Shown: piece after piece, positions 2,920 to 11,944 of the stretch | How the letters are laid out: each line of letters starts with the position of its first letter | How positions within the stretch are numbered: the first letter of the stretch is position 1 | Source of the DNA: a virus | DNA: 11,944 nucleotides | UHGV virus genome: UHGV-0306691 | Strand: one strand, 5' to 3' | Translations under genes and position numbers: made by a program | Notes under the pieces: generated by a model | Database searches by the model: none | What the model was told of the DNA's origin: nothing | What the model saw: only the letters and a program-made list of their open reading frames with translations

Positions 2920-3056
2920 AGCTTTCTCCTATCTGTAAGTAGTAAAGTTGTTGATAACTTCGATTATACAACTACAACAACTTTTATCACAACTTTTAGA
3001 TGTTGGAAAGCTAAAACATAAAGTTGTAACCTCAATAAAAACGAGGGGGATAGGTT
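2920..3056. promoter_or_regulatory. OR-like divergent promoter/operator region between cro-like and cI-like genes
   Basis: Leftward promoter: perfect TATAAT on minus strand (complement of 2963-2968) with TTGTGA -35 at 18-nt spacing (complement of 2987-2992), about 37 nt upstream of the cro ATG. Repeated operator-like motifs: TAAAGTTGT at 2943-2951 and 3019-3027; AAGTTGTTGATAACTT (2945-2960, palindromic ends); ACAACTTTTAGATGTTG at 2989-3005. Confidence 0.55.
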
Positions 3057-3743
3057 GTGAAAACATTGGCAGATAGACTAAAAAGCGAAAGAGAAAAAGC
3101 AGGAATGAGTCAGGCGCAACTAGCTGAAAAAATTGGACTTTCACAACAATCCGTAGCAAAAATCGAGAATGGAGAAACTCAACAGCCTCGGAAAATTAAA
3201 GAGATTGCTAAAGTGTTAGGGGTTTCTCAAAAGTGGTTGCAATTGGGCATTGAGGATAACGCGTCTTTCCCAGACCTTGTTGTAAAGGAGGCTGAAAGTA
3301 CAGCATTAGATCCTGACATTTTTGCAAACATTCCTGTCCTGGATGTCGAGTTATCAGCGGGTAATGGATGTTTGGCTGAAATAGTTGAATCAACTGTAGA
3401 CTGGTTCCCGCTAAGAAGGATTGATTTAAGAAAAGCTGGTGTATGTGTCTCCAATGCAAAGATCGTAAAAATTTGGGGTAATAGTTTACTACCTGTACTT
3501 AACAATGGAGATTTTGTTGCTGTTGATGTTTCCCAAACAGTTCCTATTCGTGATGGGGATCTTTATGCTATACGTGATGGCGTATTACTTAGAGTTAAAA
3601 TATTGATCAATTTACCTGACGGTGGTCTGATTCTAAGAAGTTTCAATAAAGATGAGTATCCAGATGAAATACTCACCTTCGAAGATAGGCGTTCCAGAAT
3701 TCACGTTATAGGTAGAGTATTCTGGTCATCGCGCACTTGGTAA
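3057..3743 (+). CDS. cI: cI-like prophage repressor (N-terminal XRE-type HTH, C-terminal LexA/S24 peptidase-like autocleavage domain)
   Basis: 228 aa, GTG start after GAGGGGG. HTH segment MSQAQLAEKIGLSQQSVAKIENGE; C-terminal domain with G-N-S (GNSLLP) and downstream Lys (LRVKIL) in the arrangement of the S24 Ser/Lys dyad. Divergent from the cro-like gene. Confidence 0.85.
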   Translation: MKTLADRLKSEREKAGMSQAQLAEKIGLSQQSVAKIENGETQQPRKIKEIAKVLGVSQKWLQLGIEDNASFPDLVVKEAESTALDPDIFANIPVLDVELSAGNGCLAEIVESTVDWFPLRRIDLRKAGVCVSNAKIVKIWGNSLLPVLNNGDFVAVDVSQTVPIRDGDLYAIRDGVLLRVKILINLPDGGLILRSFNKDEYPDEILTFEDRRSRIHVIGRVFWSSRTW

Positions 3744-3801: not shown

Positions 3802-3840
3802 TTCCTTCCGTGATTTGAGAGTTTCCAATCACGGAAGGAA
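3802..3840. repeat. Perfect 14-bp inverted repeat (TTCCTTCCGTGATT / AATCACGGAAGGAA) with 11-nt loop, downstream of cI
   Basis: Arms 3802-3815 and 3827-3840, directly visible. No flanking T-tract on either strand, so not a canonical intrinsic terminator; could be a processing site, protein-binding site or structure-dependent terminator. Confidence 0.5.
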
Positions 3841-3929
3841 AGTATCCCTTGTGTAATTAAAAGCGCATCGTCCATACAACCTCCTTTTTTGATAATCCTT
3901 GCCCTCATTTCACGTCCGTCAAAACCACA

Positions 3930-3983
3930 TAAAGTTGTTGACAACAACCAAAACAACAACTAGATTACAACTTAAAGATGTTG
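3930..3983 (+). promoter_or_regulatory. OL/pL-like rightward promoter with operator motifs shared with OR
   Basis: TTGACA at 3938-3943, 17-nt spacer, TAGATT at 3961-3966. TAAAGTTGT (3930-3938) overlaps the -35; ACAACTTAAAGATGTTG (3967-3983) matches the OR copy at 2989-3005 in 16 of 17 positions. Placement downstream of cI, pointing into the early-left operon, mirrors lambda pL. Confidence 0.5.
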
Positions 3984-4076
3984 CAGTAACGAACAGGCAG
4001 GACGCCCACGAAGTAGCCGCCGGTGGCGTATGAATGACCGGATGATTCGTTAAATACTATGTGTAAGAGAGCGCAA

Positions 4077-4280
4077 ATGAACCGTTATTTCACATGCTCG
4101 TTTTGTGGCGCAAACGAGCTGCAGGCAAAAAAAATCATCGCCAAAGGCGGAAAAGATGAAGTTGCTATCTGCTCTGAGTGCGTAGTCTTGTGTGTCGGGG
4201 CATTAATCAATATCAGCACAACTATTCAGTTCACACCAAATGAGAATGCGCCTTTAGATGCGCGGAAATCTGGAGGTTAA
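4077..4280 (+). CDS. Small protein with ClpX-type C4 zinc-finger (ClpX N-terminal zinc-binding-domain-like), 67 aa
   Basis: CSFCG-x18-CSECVVLC matches the ClpX ZBD signature (E. coli ClpX: CSFCG...KLIAG...YICDECVDLC), including the K-[LI]-I-A-[GK] segment. ATG at 4077 preceded by AAGAGAG; first gene after the pL-like promoter. Confidence 0.6.
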   Translation: MNRYFTCSFCGANELQAKKIIAKGGKDEVAICSECVVLCVGALINISTTIQFTPNENAPLDARKSGG

Positions 4281-4369: not shown

Positions 4370-4546
4370 GTGGGAATAGTTAGAAATCAAGCAGATATAT
4401 TGAAAATCAGCTCTGAATTGCTTGGAGTTTTGAAAAGTGAGCTCACCGCACATGGCATCGAGCCCACTGACGAAAATTTAAGTTGGGTTTTGTCGATTAT
4501 TCAACAATCACTCAAGCCCAGCCTCAGCAAACTTTTTATCGAGTAG
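4370..4546 (+). CDS. Hypothetical small protein (58 aa, GTG start)
   Basis: GGGAGG SD 5 nt upstream of GTG 4370; the ATG at 4340 has no SD. Helical-looking product. 3' end overlaps a convergent minus-strand ORF by 39 nt. Confidence 0.3.
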   Translation: MGIVRNQADILKISSELLGVLKSELTAHGIEPTDENLSWVLSIIQQSLKPSLSKLFIE

Positions 4547-4699
4547 TGCTTCGAACTTATCGTAAAGCTTGCTTATGTCGTCTATCGGGTTTTCTGACGT
4601 ACTGTAATTTTTATCTGATGTCATGGCAGCAGTCTGATATGCAGTGTGAGTCTTAACCGATAGTTGGAATAAATAAAGAATTTTTTCTTCTTTGGTCAT
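4508..4699 (-). CDS. Hypothetical small protein (63 aa), antisense-oriented within the early-left region
   Basis: ATG (complement of 4697-4699) preceded by AAGGAAA SD; product MTKEEKILYLFQLSVKTHTAYQ... Convergent with and overlapping 4370..4546. No family recognised. Confidence 0.3.
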   Translation of the reverse strand: MTKEEKILYLFQLSVKTHTAYQTAAMTSDKNYSTSENPIDDISKLYDKFEALLDKKFAEAGLE

Positions 4700-4939
4700 A
4701 ACTATTTCCTTCTTGGCTATATGAAAACACCAAGATACCACCGAGCCTGAAGTGGTGAAAAGACAGGCACATAACAGCTAAGTATTTTCAACCAGAGAGA
4801 ATCCTTAGCGTTGTGGTGAATGCGCAGGCTGATGCGCGAAAGACATTGCAGCTATTGCGGAAAAGAGCTGTTCGGCGGGGCAATTAAACGCCCGTGAGAG
4901 TCTGAAATAACCGCAAGCCGGAGATCAGCACCGGTCACC

Positions 4940-5140: not shown

Positions 5141-5503
5141 ATGGCTAGCGAACGCAGTACTGATGTGCAGGCATTTATCGGGGAGCTGGACGGCGGCGTA
5201 TTTGAAACCAAAATCGGCGCAGTTCTCAGTGAAGTCGCTTCCGGTGTGATGAACACGAAAACCAAAGGTAAGGTCTCGCTCAACCTGGAAATCGAACCGT
5301 TTGATGAGAACCGTGTGAAAATCAAACACAAACTCTCATATGTTCGCCCGACTAACCGCGGGAAAATTTCCGAAGAAGACACCACCGAAACGCCGATGTA
5401 TGTCAATCGCGGTGGTCGTCTGACTATTCTGCAGGAAGACCAGGGACAATTACTGACTCTTGCCGGTGAACCTGACGGAAAACTCCGCGCAGCAGGTAAT
5501 TAA
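5141..5503 (+). CDS. Hypothetical protein, YfdP-like (120 aa)
   Basis: ATG at 5141 preceded by GAGGAG; the ORF-track extension back to 4955 covers the structured RNA region and is unlikely to be coding. Length and position upstream of a 274-aa gene match K-12 KplE1 yfdP as I recall it. Confidence 0.5.
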   Translation: MASERSTDVQAFIGELDGGVFETKIGAVLSEVASGVMNTKTKGKVSLNLEIEPFDENRVKIKHKLSYVRPTNRGKISEEDTTETPMYVNRGGRLTILQEDQGQLLTLAGEPDGKLRAAGN

Positions 5504-5568: not shown

Positions 5569-6393
5569 ATGTCTCAGAACTTAGACGCAACCGCAATTAA
5601 TCAAATCCATGCCCTTATTTCTGCTCAGGGTGTTAATGAAATTATCAGTAAGATTGGTGCCGATGCAGTGGCATTGCCTGAGAATTTCCGCATTCATGAT
5701 CTGGAAAAATTTAATTTAAATCGCTTCCGTTTCCGTGGTGCGCTTTCCACTGCCAGCATCGATGACTTTACCCGTTATTCTAAAGATCTTGCAGATGAAG
5801 GCACCCGCTGCTTTATCGATGCTGATAATATGCGTGCCGTCAGTGTACTTAACCTGGGTACTATTGATGAACCAGGTCACGCAGATAACACCGCCACCCT
5901 CAAACTGAAAAAGACAGCACCGTTCTCTGCCCTGTTGTCTGTTAACGGCGAGCGTAACTCCCAGAAGTCACTGGCAGAATGGATTGAAGACTGGGCCGAC
6001 TACCTTGTGGGCTTTGATGCTAATGGTGACACCATTCAGGCAACCAAAGCGGCTGCGGCAGTCCGTAAAATCACAATTGAAGCAAACCAGACCGCTGATT
6101 TTGAAGACAATGACTTCAGCGGCAAACGCTCTCTGATGGAGTCTGTCGAAGCGAAAACCAAAGACATTATGCCAGTGGCATTTGAATTTAAATGCGTTCC
6201 GTTTGAAGGCCTGAAAGAACGTCCGTTTAAATTACGCCTCAGCATTCTCACTGGCGATCGTCCTGTACTGGTTCTGCGCATTATTCAGCTGGAAGCAGTG
6301 CAGGAGGAAATGGCTAACGAATTTCGTGATCTGCTTGTTGAGAAATTCAAAGACAGCAAAGTAGAAACCTTTATTGGTACTTTCACCGCCTGA
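5569..6393 (+). CDS. yfdQ: YfdQ-like protein (DUF2303 family), 274 aa
   Basis: Clean ORF with GAGGA SD 6 nt upstream. Length identical to K-12 YfdQ as I recall (274 aa) and followed by an HD-domain gene of YfdR length. Homology not verified. Confidence 0.55.
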
Positions 6394-6521
6394 TTTCATT
6401 ACTGCAAATGCCCCTGCGGGGGCATTTATGGAAACGTAATTAACTCAATAATCACCGGATGGTGAGAGCTTCCTTTTAGCAGAATTCAGCGCGGTGCAGC
6501 GCATATAAAGTGGAGAACGAA

Positions 6522-7058
6522 ATGTCATTTATTAAAACTTTTTCCGGGAAGCATTTTTATTATGACAAGATAAATAAAGACGACATCGTGATTAACGATA
6601 TCGCAGTTTCCCTTTCAAATATCTGTCGCTTTGCAGGACATCTTTCACACTTCTACAGTGTCGCCCAGCATGCGGTGCTTTGCAGCCAGCTGGTGCCGCA
6701 GGAATTTGCTTTTGAAGCGTTAATGCATGATGCAACAGAAGCATATTGCCAGGACATCCCCGCGCCACTGAAACGCCTTCTTCCTGACTATAAACGGATG
6801 GAAGAAAAAATAGACGCCGTAATCCGTGAGAAATACGGGTTACCTCCTGTTATGAGCACGCCAGTGAAATATGCCGATCTCATTATGCTGGCAACCGAAC
6901 GCCGTGATCTCGGGCTTGATGATGGCTCTTTCTGGCCTGTTCTGGAAGGTATCCCGGCAACAGAGATGTTCAAAGTTATTCCACTGTCGCCAGGCCATGC
7001 CTATGGGATGTTTATGGAACGTTTTAACGAGTTATCGGAGTTACGCAAATGCGCATGA
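6522..7058 (+). CDS. yfdR: HD-domain phosphohydrolase, YfdR-like 5'-deoxynucleotidase family (178 aa from ATG 6522)
   Basis: HD-domain metal-binding motifs: H in SVAQHAVLC and HD in LMHDATEAY. ATG 6522 has GGAGA at 5-nt spacing (the track start at 6510 is a GTG without better context). The 178-aa length matches K-12 YfdR as I recall. Confidence 0.65.
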   Translation: MSFIKTFSGKHFYYDKINKDDIVINDIAVSLSNICRFAGHLSHFYSVAQHAVLCSQLVPQEFAFEALMHDATEAYCQDIPAPLKRLLPDYKRMEEKIDAVIREKYGLPPVMSTPVKYADLIMLATERRDLGLDDGSFWPVLEGIPATEMFKVIPLSPGHAYGMFMERFNELSELRKCA

Positions 7059-7591
7059 ATGTTTTCGAAATGGAAGGGTTTCTTCGCGGGAAATGTGTAC
7101 CGCGAGATCTGAAAGTGAATGAAACAAATGCTGAGTATCTGGTGCGTAAATTTGCTGAAGCGGAGGCTAAGATTTCGGCGTTTGCGGCGGAGAATGAACT
7201 GGCTCGTAAGGCGGTTCAGGCATTCTGCGATGTTGTTGGCGACAACACCGAGGTTATCGCTGAGGAGGTTGGGCGAGATGGCGTTCTGGTTATTTTGGAG
7301 GCCATGAAAGTAACAGGAAATATGCCAGCCACCGACGCTTTCCTGGCTGAAATACGTGCGGAGGCACGCAACGAGGGGATTAACTACACCGCAAGCCGCC
7401 TTGCTGCCGCTTTCAACCACGGATTTATCAATAAGTCTTTACGTGAAGTTTTCGACGTTACACGCATGATTCTGTCAGCGAAAGAAGAGTTGGCTAATGA
7501 ACCGCACCCAATTGATGGCCTGTCCGGTGAATATGCGGAGAAATCCCTTGAAGAATGGGCGGAACAGATTCGCAAAGGAGTTCAGTCATGA
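7049..7591 (+). CDS. Hypothetical protein, YfdS-like (180 aa); paralog of 8095..8493
   Basis: Start overlaps the upstream gene end; stop overlaps the next start (ATGA at 7588-7591). N-terminal ~45 aa nearly identical to the product of 8095..8493 ([41 protein letters not shown] vs [42 protein letters not shown]). Confidence 0.55.
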   Translation: MRMNVFEMEGFLRGKCVPRDLKVNETNAEYLVRKFAEAEAKISAFAAENELARKAVQAFCDVVGDNTEVIAEEVGRDGVLVILEAMKVTGNMPATDAFLAEIRAEARNEGINYTASRLAAAFNHGFINKSLREVFDVTRMILSAKEELANEPHPIDGLSGEYAEKSLEEWAEQIRKGVQS

Positions 7592-7933: not shown

Positions 7934-8098
7934 ATGAGAGGACTTGCATACAATCCCGGCATTCTTCCGGCAGAAATGATTATTCGCCAACGCGTAAAGC
8001 CAATGCCATCGAGAGAGGAATTGCTTAAGAGAAATTCTTTTCCATCAGTGAATCAAAACAAATATCTGAATGCGATGTGGCGGAGTGGTAAGAAATGA
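7934..8098 (+). CDS. Hypothetical small protein (54 aa), translationally coupled to the downstream paralog gene
   Basis: AGAGGAA SD upstream of ATG 7934; no internal stops (translated by hand: [54 protein letters not shown]); stop overlaps ATG 8095 (ATGA). Below the ORF-track size cutoff. Confidence 0.3.
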
Positions 8099-8493
8099 AA
8101 CAAATGACACTAATTGAGATGGATGGTTTTCTGAAAGGCAAATGCATCCCACGAGATTTAAAGGTTAACGAAACAAACGCTGAATATCTGGTGCGTAAAT
8201 TTGCTGAAGCGGAGGCCAAGTGCGCGGCGCTGGCTGCTGAAGTTGAGGCTGTGAAATCAGCACATCAAGATGCTGTAAACACCATCATGTATACCGCCAA
8301 TCGAACGGGTGTTTTATACACAGAGAAGGCAATTCAAATGTCCTGCAAAACCCCGGCCACCGACGCCTTCCTGGCTGAAGTGCGGGCGCAGGGGGTAGAG
8401 ATGATGCGCGAACATCCATCAATCAAACTTTGCTCTTTGACGCACATATGTGACGAGTTAGCCGCCCAGCTTCGCAAAGGAGGCAACCAGTGA
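8095..8493 (+). CDS. Hypothetical protein (132 aa), diverged paralog of 7049..7591
   Basis: Shares the N-terminal domain and an internal [10 protein letters not shown][IV]RA motif with the 180-aa protein; a 51-nt patch (8170-8220) is about 94% identical to 7121-7171. Stop overlaps the next gene start (GTGA). Confidence 0.55.
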
Positions 8494-9534: not shown

Positions 9535-9894
9535 ATGACCACTATTACCAATAAGAAACAGTATCCCAGCGAGCAATATCTTAATGAGCTGATCACCAAC
9601 ATAGAGTTTGCTGCAAGGGCACCAGTTGAAGTCGTGAGAGCGATGGCAGCAGAGCTACAGAAGCGGCGCGAAGCTGATAGTGCAGAACCTGTAAGCCAGG
9701 CTTACAAGTTGAACGCGCTGGATGGCAACTCTCCGGTAACTCCGGATGGTTGGGTTATGGTTCCTAAACAGGTAACGCCGGAAATCAGCAACGCGATAAA
9801 CGTTGTGGGTCAACGCTGTACATGCGGAAATTGCTCTCAGCGGTTGTGGGATTTATTACTCGACGCCACACAGCAAGGAGTTAACCGTGGCTAA
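9535..9894 (+). CDS. Hypothetical protein (119 aa) with C-terminal CxCGNC motif
   Basis: Clean ORF starting 4 nt after the upstream stop; in operon context. No family recognised. Confidence 0.5.
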   Translation: MTTITNKKQYPSEQYLNELITNIEFAARAPVEVVRAMAAELQKRREADSAEPVSQAYKLNALDGNSPVTPDGWVMVPKQVTPEISNAINVVGQRCTCGNCSQRLWDLLLDATQQGVNRG

Positions 9895-10171
9895 CCTGCA
9901 ACTTGCCGTTAAAGGTGAATACTTCGATGCCATGATTCGCGGAGAGAAAACGGAAGAGTATCGCCTGTGTAATGACTACTGGAAAAAGCGCCTCGTTAAC
10001 CGTAAGCATGACCGCCTGATTATCACAAAGGGATATCCGAAGCGCGACGATTCCAGCCGCAGAGTTGATGTTCCGTATGACGGATATGAAGTGAAGACAA
10101 TCACACATCCGCACTTCGGTGATAAACCGGTAAAGGTATACGCGATAAAGGTAAATATCGGCACTGAATAA
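9887..10171 (+). CDS. ASCH/PUA-like domain protein (94 aa from GTG 9887)
   Basis: GEKTEEYR matches the ASCH GxKxxExR signature. GTG 9887 is preceded by GGAG and overlaps the upstream stop by 8 nt; the track start at 9803 lies deep inside the previous gene. Confidence 0.45.
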   Translation: MANLQLAVKGEYFDAMIRGEKTEEYRLCNDYWKKRLVNRKHDRLIITKGYPKRDDSSRRVDVPYDGYEVKTITHPHFGDKPVKVYAIKVNIGTE

Positions 10172-10196
10172 CAATCCGCACAACACAAGGTCAAGA

Positions 10197-10436
10197 ATGT
10201 TCAGAGTGATTTACCCTAACACCTGGTACGTCGACCACCACGGCACTCCCTGCAAAATCCTGCGTTCCACTCACAACAAAGTTCACTACATCCGAAAAGG
10301 CAGAACATGTATCGCCAGCATGTTCCGCTTTAATCATGACTTTGAACCTGTGAATAAAGCTGACGCAGATCGGATAGCTGAAGAGATCGAAACAGCAGAA
10401 CACATTAAGAAGTTACGTGCCATACGCAGGAAATAG
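10197..10436 (+). CDS. Hypothetical protein (79 aa)
   Basis: ORF in operon orientation with a weak SD (AAGG). Basic C-terminus. No family recognised. Confidence 0.4.
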   Translation: MFRVIYPNTWYVDHHGTPCKILRSTHNKVHYIRKGRTCIASMFRFNHDFEPVNKADADRIAEEIETAEHIKKLRAIRRK

Positions 10437-10575
10437 AAAAATTGATAAATTCAATACTGCATTTCTCAGCATTAAATTTATCTCTATGACCAGTCAAGAG
10501 ATGTACCTGCCATGAGCTTAATATCATGTCAGATATATCGGTCACAAACTCCCTCAGCAGCTAAGAGGAGGACAA

Positions 10576-10812
10576 ATGTCTCGACTAATCACTTTACAGG
10601 ACTGGGCTAAAGAAGAATTTGGGGACTTAGCACCAAGTGAGCGAGTTCTGAAAAAATACGCGCAAGGGAAAATGATGGCCCCACCCGCTATAAAAGTTGG
10701 TCGCTACTGGATGATTGACCGAAATTCCCGTTTTGTAGGAACGCTTGCAGAACCGCAACTCCCAATAAACGCAAACCCAAAACTCCAACGGATAATCGCT
10801 GATGGCTGCTAG
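10576..10812 (+). CDS. xis: Excisionase (lambda Xis-like)
   Basis: Strong SD AAGAGGAGG. N-terminus LITLQDWAKEE...KKYAQGKMMAPPAIKVGRYW parallels lambda Xis (LTLQEWNARQ...VRRWVRECRIFPPPVKDGREY). Overlaps the integrase start by 11 nt, as in lambda xis-int. Confidence 0.6.
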   Translation: MSRLITLQDWAKEEFGDLAPSERVLKKYAQGKMMAPPAIKVGRYWMIDRNSRFVGTLAEPQLPINANPKLQRIIADGC

Positions 10813-11944
10813 ACCCCGATCTCACAAAATCTCTATACCCAATTTATATTGCAAATTAGATAAGCGAACCGGAAAGGTATATTGGCAATACAAACATCCA
10901 CTATCCGGTCGTTTTCATAGCTTAGGAACTGATGAGAATGAAGCAAAACAAGTTGCTACTGAAGCAAATACCATTATTGCTGAACAACGTACCCGACAAA
11001 TATTAAGCGTCAATGAGCGTCTAGAAAGAATGAAAGGCAGGCGCTCAGACATTACGGTGACAGAATGGCTTGATAAATATATTTCTATCCAGGAGGACAG
11101 GCTGCAACATAATGAACTAAGACCCAACTCCTATCGGCAAAAAGGCAAACCCATTCGTCTTTTCCGTGAGCATTGTGGAATGCAACACCTCAAGGATATT
11201 ACCGCACTTGATATTGCCGAAATAATTGATGCTGTAAAGGCTGAAGGTCATAACAGGATGGCGCAAGTCGTGAGAATGGTGTTGATCGACGTCTTCAAAG
11301 AAGCACAACACGCAGGACATGTTCCGCCAGGATTTAACCCAGCGCAGGCAACAAAACAACCGCGAAATCGAGTAAACCGCCAAAGATTATCACTGCCCGA
11401 ATGGCAGGCAATATTTGACAGCGTAAGCAGACGGCAGCCCTATTTAAAATGCGGGATGCTACTTGCTCTTGTCACTGGACAACGTTTAGGCGATATCTGC
11501 AATTTGAAATTCTCTGATATCTGGGACGACATGTTGCACATTACTCAGGAAAAAACCGGTTCAAAACTTGCTATTCCGCTTAACCTGAAATGCGATGCTC
11601 TGAATATTACCCTTCGTGAAGTTATATCTCAGTGCAGGGATGCTGTTGTTAGTAAATATCTGGTCCATTACCGTCACACTACCTCTCAAGCAAACAGAGG
11701 AGACCAGGTGTCTGCAAATACTCTTACAACGGCTTTTAAAAAGGCCAGGGAAAAATGTGGCATAAAATGGGAGCCAGGAACTGCGCCCACATTTCATGAG
11801 CAGCGATCTCTGTCAGAACGGTTATATCGGGAACAGGGTCTGGATACGCAAAAGTTGTTAGGTCATAAATCCAGAAAAATGACCGACCGATACAATGATG
11901 ATCGTGGTAAAGACTGGATTATCGTAGATATCAAAACAGCATAG
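10802..11944 (+). CDS. int: Tyrosine site-specific integrase, lambda Int family
   Basis: 380 aa. N-terminal arm-binding region (RSHKISIPNLYCKLDKRTGKVYWQYKHP vs lambda RRSHERRDLPPNLYIRNNGYYCYRDP) and catalytic-domain motifs in lambda order: TGQRLGDICNLKFSDI (Arg), FHEQRSLSERLY (His-x-x-Arg), LLGHKS, DRY (Tyr nucleophile). Stop codon is the last triplet of the window. Confidence 0.9.
   Translation: MAARPRSHKISIPNLYCKLDKRTGKVYWQYKHPLSGRFHSLGTDENEAKQVATEANTIIAEQRTRQILSVNERLERMKGRRSDITVTEWLDKYISIQEDRLQHNELRPNSYRQKGKPIRLFREHCGMQHLKDITALDIAEIIDAVKAEGHNRMAQVVRMVLIDVFKEAQHAGHVPPGFNPAQATKQPRNRVNRQRLSLPEWQAIFDSVSRRQPYLKCGMLLALVTGQRLGDICNLKFSDIWDDMLHITQEKTGSKLAIPLNLKCDALNITLREVISQCRDAVVSKYLVHYRHTTSQANRGDQVSANTLTTAFKKAREKCGIKWEPGTAPTFHEQRSLSERLYREQGLDTQKLLGHKSRKMTDRYNDDRGKDWIIVDIKTA

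Follow-up and report, generated by a model that had tools for sequence, protein, structure and literature searches.

YfdR of Escherichia coli K-12 (b2361), encoded in the cryptic prophage CPS-53, is annotated as a 5'-deoxynucleotidase and as a DnaA-binding protein. The second property was described by Noguchi and Katayama 2016 (PMC4776307), who isolated yfdQRST as a multicopy suppressor of hda-185. [quoted passage not shown] Multicopy yfdQRS or yfdQRT inhibited initiation both in vivo and in vitro; YfdR alone gave no initiation block, and yfdQ together with yfdS or yfdT was needed, at multicopy. Deletion of yfdQRST produced no replication or hydroxyurea phenotype, and the authors conceded that the effect might be an artefact of overexpression. 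The YfdR-DnaA account is taken up again in later reviews and in a 2025 eLife paper. The enzymology reaches us through citing papers: as Zimmerman et al. [quoted passage not shown] In the latter study, deleting yfdR left the CMP yield unchanged.

Four further proteins are relevant to the comparison. YfbR of E. coli (5'-deoxynucleotidase or dCMP phosphohydrolase; 2PAQ, PF12917) and YfdR are both reported as nucleoside-monophosphate phosphatases, but YfbR is encoded by a housekeeping gene and YfdR by a phage gene. Atu1052 of Agrobacterium tumefaciens (2GZ4) is a chromosomally encoded structural-genomics protein whose function has not been determined. DatZ of cyanophage S-2L (6ZPA) is a dATP triphosphohydrolase that acts within a base-replacement pathway. 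The pre-early Dmp protein of phage T5, a deoxynucleoside-5'-monophosphatase, offers a functional analogy only, being a phosphatase of dNMPs that a phage produces right at the onset of infection. It was rejected as a YfdR homologue, with an hhalign probability of 0.1%, no match to an HD Pfam family and assignment to PHROG 415.

The locus studied here lies in the virus genome UHGV-0306691, of which a stretch of 11,944 nucleotides (hereafter the window) was analysed. An intact gene of 178 codons for an HD-domain phosphohydrolase (178 aa) occupies positions 6522-7058 on the + strand. In the list of open reading frames its frame opens at GTG 6510, on the + strand, and ends with the stop codon at 7056-7058. 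A ribosome-binding site GGAG, read from the sequence at 6512-6515 (+ strand) and kept in K-12, precedes ATG 6522 by 6 nt, and this ATG is the start annotated for K-12 yfdR; the limits 6522-7058 given in a preliminary description are therefore exact. By BLASTP, the product is identical to K-12 YfdR at 175 of 178 residues (98%, gap-free), the differences being three conservative and common polymorphisms (K151N, S156A and E170D in K-12). At the DNA level, identity to K-12 is 98% across 700 bases that reach from the upstream spacer into the next gene. A megablast search found yfdR in 2971 of 5426 complete E. coli genomes, annotated as "yfdR: 5'-deoxynucleotidase". By tblastn, phage mEp460 (mEp460_4F5) encodes a YfdR that is 100% identical, and Stx-converting phages, SfIV and others carry copies that are 97-99% identical. 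Near identity over the full length and the order yfdP-yfdQ-yfdR on one strand both place the gene in the yfdR orthologue group. Given these protein, DNA, E. coli and phage matches, the gene goes beyond the label "YfdR-like" first attached to it and is yfdR proper. It is thus a known, annotated, widespread and partly characterised prophage gene, with nothing new in it.

The metal ligands expected of the HD superfamily are all present. Conservation was scored in an alignment of 63 YfdR homologues that share 40-68% identity (alignment A2). The first metal-ligand histidine, H50 (codon 6669-6671, + strand), sits in the motif SVAQH, is found in 63/63 homologues and aligns with VAQH of 2GZ4. The HD dyad H69-D70 (6726-6731) lies in the stretch MHDATEAYCQD (6726-6755) together with E73 (6738-6740) and D78 (6753-6755); these four residues are conserved in 62, 62, 61 and 62 of the 63 sequences, respectively, and both BLASTP and the profile alignment set them opposite H68, D69, E72 and D77 of YfbR. 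The last metal-ligand aspartate, D119 (6876-6878), belongs to the motif KYAD, is conserved in 61/63 homologues and aligns with KKAD of 2GZ4, while R36 is present in 62/63. The H...HD motifs that had been called clear are consequently confirmed, and a loss of metal ligands on alignment, which would have spoken against the assignment, was not seen: 61-63 of the 63 sequences keep each of H50, H69-D70 and D119. With 98% identity to K-12 YfdR, the PHROG 318 match, the size of the family and the intact alleles described below, chance is no explanation for the pattern. The hhalign alignment of the family with YfbR mis-registers the region of the first histidine, so the equivalences H50/H33 and D119/D137 were taken from motif order and from the 2GZ4 alignment.

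The HDxxE...D block of YfbR corresponds residue for residue to that of YfdR. Zimmerman et al. 2008 are said to have assigned H68-D69 of YfbR as the HD dyad, E72 as the catalytic glutamate and D77 as the sugar-binding aspartate. Beyond this block the two proteins diverge: similarity is confined to about 40-75 residues, YfbR is not recovered by phmmer, and the last aspartate follows the HD dyad by 49 residues in YfdR and by 68 in YfbR. They also differ at the residue after the invariant arginine. In the YfdR clade Arg36 is followed by Phe (56/63) or Tyr (7/63), whereas YfbR (R18-W19) and Atu1052 have Trp. This tryptophan was reportedly proposed by Zimmerman et al. 2008, by comparison with YfdR, to be the switch for deoxyribose selectivity.

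The gene is under purifying selection. A scan of viral contigs with the YfdR family alignment returned only near-identical E. coli prophage copies, which served for analyses of selection and synteny. Eighty IMG/VR loci yielded 67 full-length yfdR copies and 51 distinct alleles, all of them intact, with a mean pN/pS of 0.07; across the 38 protein variants from E. coli prophages the ligand residues and R36 are unchanged. These data bear on whether yfdR is a decaying passenger of a cryptic prophage with no current function, as its residence in the defective CPS-53 and the lack of a reported deletion phenotype might suggest. The selection data contradict decay, and yfdR is also carried by phages isolated as viruses (mEp460, SfIV, Stx-converting phages and ST64B) and, in the window, by a locus whose cI, cro, O, xis and int genes are intact. 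Hence we regard decay as highly improbable.

YfdR belongs to a very large family. An exhaustive HMMER search retrieved 22,772 cluster representatives at E<=1e-3, and PHROG 318 ("deoxyribonucleoside 5' monophosphate phosphatase") matches YfdR over residues 1-178 with an E-value of 4.2e-110. The curated profiles gave a different picture. YfdR scored 24.3 bits against the Pfam YfbR-like family PF12917 (cut-off 25.9; YfbR itself scores 258 bits), 17.0 bits against Pfam HD_3 PF13023 (gathering cut-off 22.5, residues 41-96 only) and 19.9 against the NCBIfam YfbR equivalog NF003009 (cut-off 122). In the profile search first suggested, the HD_3 and YfbR profiles thus match YfdR only below their curated cut-offs. 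The single solved relative recovered by phmmer is Atu1052 (2GZ4, E 2e-13), which also leads the matches to the A2 profile (3e-30, compared with 5e-6 for Lin2634, 3MZO, and 1.7e-4 for YfbR, 2PAQ). An AlphaFold2 model built on A2 has a mean pLDDT of 97.5 and an all-alpha HD fold, and Foldseek returned 2GZ4 as its only significant match. YfdR thus matches Atu1052-like proteins over its full length in both sequence and structure, although Atu1052 is only 25-26% identical, has several insertions and carries Arg-Trp where YfdR has Arg-Phe. Since the curated cut-offs were not reached and phmmer, Foldseek and the profile search all favour 2GZ4, YfdR is a small single-domain HD phosphohydrolase of the Atu1052/2GZ4 clade and no orthologue of YfbR. 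Separately, four homologues (P0122, P0127, P0130 and P0138) are 350-410 aa long and contain two tandem YfdR-like domains.

Several of these features would also suit a non-canonical substrate. This could be a dNTP, which is what DatZ hydrolyses, a nucleotide that is modified or damaged, or an immune signal derived from a nucleotide; the weak in vitro activity on dNMPs would then be a side reaction. The affinities for nucleotides, as quoted by the citing paper, are low; the closest characterised folds include DatZ (dATPase, phage S-2L) and OxsA; the best PHROG for YfbR is the phage dATP-triphosphohydrolase family 7076 and not 318; and beside the conserved arginine, YfdR and its clade have Phe or Tyr in place of the Trp of YfbR and Atu1052. 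Furthermore, a defence system triggered by m6-dAMP has been described in E. coli (bioRxiv 10.64898/2026.01.15.699771). However, this reading has no direct support. DatZ falls into PHROG 7076 and YfdR into PHROG 318, and the base-replacement pathway in which DatZ acts has no counterpart in the window. PADLOC profiles gave no match to YfdR or to six neighbouring proteins, YfdR has no anti-defence annotation, and in distant phages the gene is flanked by ordinary genes for replication and recombination. We therefore consider a non-canonical substrate unlikely. A role of yfdR in a defence system was rejected on the absence of PADLOC matches.

In the window, yfdR is the third gene of a conserved module. 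The first, yfdP (5141-5503, + strand), encodes a protein 98% identical to K-12 YfdP (PHROG 204) and occurs in 62 of 80 related loci. The second, yfdQ (5569-6393, + strand), encodes a DUF2303 protein (PF10065, E 8e-92) that is 99% identical to K-12 YfdQ. It lies directly upstream of yfdR in 62 of 73 related loci, with a constant gap of about 131 nt, whereas the gene downstream of yfdR varies between related loci. YfdQ is the constant upstream partner in enterobacterial prophages, and the published DnaA phenotype depends on it as well as on YfdR (PMC4776307). The yfdQ-yfdR spacer, constant in length in 64 related loci, holds a GC-rich hairpin (6407-6426, + strand; AUGCCCC-UGCG-GGGGCAU by RNA folding) that is identical in K-12 and is followed by a weak U-tract, UUUAU. 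The hairpin could be a weak terminator or a stabiliser within the operon; a terminator scan of the window did not flag it. The K-12 prophage shares with the window the start and ribosome-binding site of yfdR, the order yfdP-yfdQ-yfdR, the 128-nt spacer and its hairpin. In Salmonella phage ST64B the same module is kept between cI and int.

The gene after yfdR (7049-7591, + strand) overlaps the yfdR stop by 10 nt and shares only an N-terminal module with YfdS: the first 35 aa of its product are identical to K-12 YfdS by BLASTP and the sequence diverges thereafter, the common module being about 45 aa, and DUF551, present in K-12 YfdS, was not found in it. This gene and the one at 8095-8493 (+ strand) are paralogues with the common YfdS N-terminal module of ~45 aa and unrelated C-termini, neither with DUF551, and exemplify a domain-shuffled Ead/Ea22-type region. 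Homologues of yfdT, torI and intS were looked for in the window and not found. Compared with CPS-53, the module here stands beside an intact immunity region and other xis and int genes, and lacks the company of yfdT, torI and intS.

The surroundings of yfdR have a lambdoid layout. On the - strand lie an O-like replication gene (754-1746), a YmfL-type gene in the cII position (2091-2681) and a cro-like gene (2671-2919). The open reading frame at 3057-3743 (+ strand) encodes a cI-like repressor, annotated as an XRE/cI repressor in matching phages and genomes, and marks the immunity region that lies upstream of the operon. Next comes the one strong promoter-like site, TTGACA-17-TAGATT at 3938-3966 (+ strand; promoter scan score 10/12), a PL-like promoter amid operator-like repeats (3927-3984). 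These repeats, AAAGTTGTTGA(T/C)AAC, ACAACTT..AGATGTTG and ACATAAAGTTGT, recur in the cro/cI intergenic region at 2940-3030, as would fit OR and OL of a single immunity type. Downstream of the PL-like promoter the + strand carries, in order, a gene for a stand-alone ClpX zinc finger, yfdP, yfdQ, yfdR, mosaic Ead/Ea22-type genes, xis and int; yfdR is on the strand of the promoter and 2.5 kb downstream of it. The cI-like repressor, the PL-like promoter among operator-like repeats and the lambdoid layout with yfdR on the same strand support, as far as sequence can tell, the placement in an early operon offered by the preliminary description. Here yfdR is apparently carried by a lambdoid phage or prophage whose immunity region is intact.

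Other elements of the window were noted in passing. An inverted repeat just downstream of the cI-like gene (3802-3840), with 17-nt arms that are 94% complementary and a 5-nt loop, may act in termination or in protein binding. The gene that comes first behind the PL-like promoter (4059-4280, + strand) encodes a 73-aa protein that consists of the ClpX C4-type zinc finger only (PF06689, E 1.4e-10); on its own, this ClpX N-domain might compete for the adaptors or substrates of ClpX, for instance an O-type replication protein. A small open reading frame on the - strand (4508-4741), inside an early operon otherwise on the + strand, may be a moron or an antisense gene; a 63-aa version is a "hypothetical protein" in strain K-15KW01. 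At the right end (9550-11944), which has no CPS-53 counterpart (matches to TorI and IntS were not found), an xis-like gene lies at 10576-10812 and an integrase gene starts at 10802 and runs past the window edge. No complete E. coli genome covers at least 80% of the window, so the latter is taken as a mosaic phage. An Rfam scan of the window for structured RNA gave nothing at gathering thresholds.

Because the viral-contig scan gave only near-identical E. coli copies, distant genomic contexts of YfdR were drawn from six phage records. In Burkholderia phage vB_SBP9 the YfdR homologue adjoins a DNA ligase and a DNA polymerase. In Pseudomonas phage pAN its neighbours are a cytosine methyltransferase and an exonuclease, and the same operon has a YfdQ-family gene upstream; in a Vibrio Queuovirinae phage it lies beside a helicase and an exonuclease. 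These neighbours are consistent with a role in nucleotide or DNA metabolism. A bolder view makes the early yfdP-yfdQ-yfdR module a phage counter-defence or takeover device, in which YfdR would destroy a host danger signal or toxic nucleotide (e.g., a dNMP of the m6-dAMP type), or would keep hold of DnaA while acting, with the DUF2303 protein YfdQ, on replication intermediates or DNA ends; we give it little credence.

Whether DnaA is the target for which yfdR has been selected is a separate matter. In that case YfdR, YfdQ and a partner of the YfdS/YfdT type would occupy the Phe46 surface of DnaA domain I, block the docking of DiaA and DnaB and stop initiation at oriC during phage replication, the nucleotidase being vestigial; such host takeover is compatible with catalysis. 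The binding of His-YfdR to DnaA but not to the F46A protein and the inhibition by multicopy yfdQRS or yfdQRT (PMC4776307) favour it, as do the constancy of yfdQ beside yfdR in E. coli prophages and the position of yfdR in the early operon. On the other hand, the inhibition required multicopy and additional genes, and an overexpression artefact is possible according to the same paper. The window has no yfdT and retains only the N-terminal ~45 aa of yfdS, without the DUF551 part, so the exact gene set that inhibits initiation in K-12 is absent here. More than 20,000 clusters, Bacillus, Caulobacter and Rhizobium phages and Agrobacterium Atu1052 among them, show almost no variation in the catalytic residues; with a family extending this far beyond E. 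coli, a contact specific to E. coli DnaA cannot be the selected trait in those relatives. As the selected function, host takeover is therefore possible but doubtful. The initial suggestion that YfdR could block host initiation through DnaA agrees with what is published for the K-12 protein, with the caveat that YfdR alone was insufficient without multicopy yfdQ and yfdS or yfdT.

The best-supported reading is a catalytic one, since the catalytic residues are near-invariant across a very large and taxonomically broad family. We are confident, though short of certain, that YfdR is a phosphohydrolase of nucleoside monophosphates that depends on metal and is produced from the early leftward operon; DnaA binding is a further property reported for it. 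H50, H69, D70 and D119 would hold the metal ion or ions in this single-domain all-alpha enzyme; by analogy with E72, D77 and R18 of YfbR, E73 may serve as the general base, D78 as the binder of the sugar hydroxyl and R36 as the binder of the phosphate. The enzyme would most likely strip the 5'-phosphate from nucleoside monophosphates, with low affinity. The proposed assignment as a 5'-deoxynucleotidase agrees with the weak nucleotidase activity published for K-12 YfdR, as relayed by the citing papers, and with the metal ligands intact in the window protein. Expression, together with yfdP and yfdQ, would come from the repressor-controlled leftward operon during lytic growth or induction, and YfdR would probably serve the phage in its nucleotide or DNA metabolism; what it acts on physiologically and how the phage gains from it are our surmise. 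YfdR may also bind DnaA domain I and, when abundant, dampen host initiation with YfdQ and a third protein. Both the activity and the DnaA binding are reported for the K-12 protein and would extend to the window protein by analogy. Weighing against catalysis as the function are the low reported affinities, with substrate range and kinetics known from second-hand accounts, the unchanged CMP yield after yfdR deletion, the lack of a phenotype after yfdQRST deletion, and the scores for the Pfam YfbR-like, HD_3 and NCBIfam YfbR profiles, all under their cut-offs.

As a discovery, the occurrence of yfdR in this genome matters little: the gene already has a name and an annotation, is widespread and has been characterised in part. 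What YfdR and its constant partner YfdQ do for a live lambdoid phage is a question of long standing, given the weak enzymology in print and a DnaA effect confined to overexpression. In the window the module stands in what seems to be a working phage, next to int and xis genes and an immunity region that is intact, and this setting would be a better genetic background for the question than the defective CPS-53.
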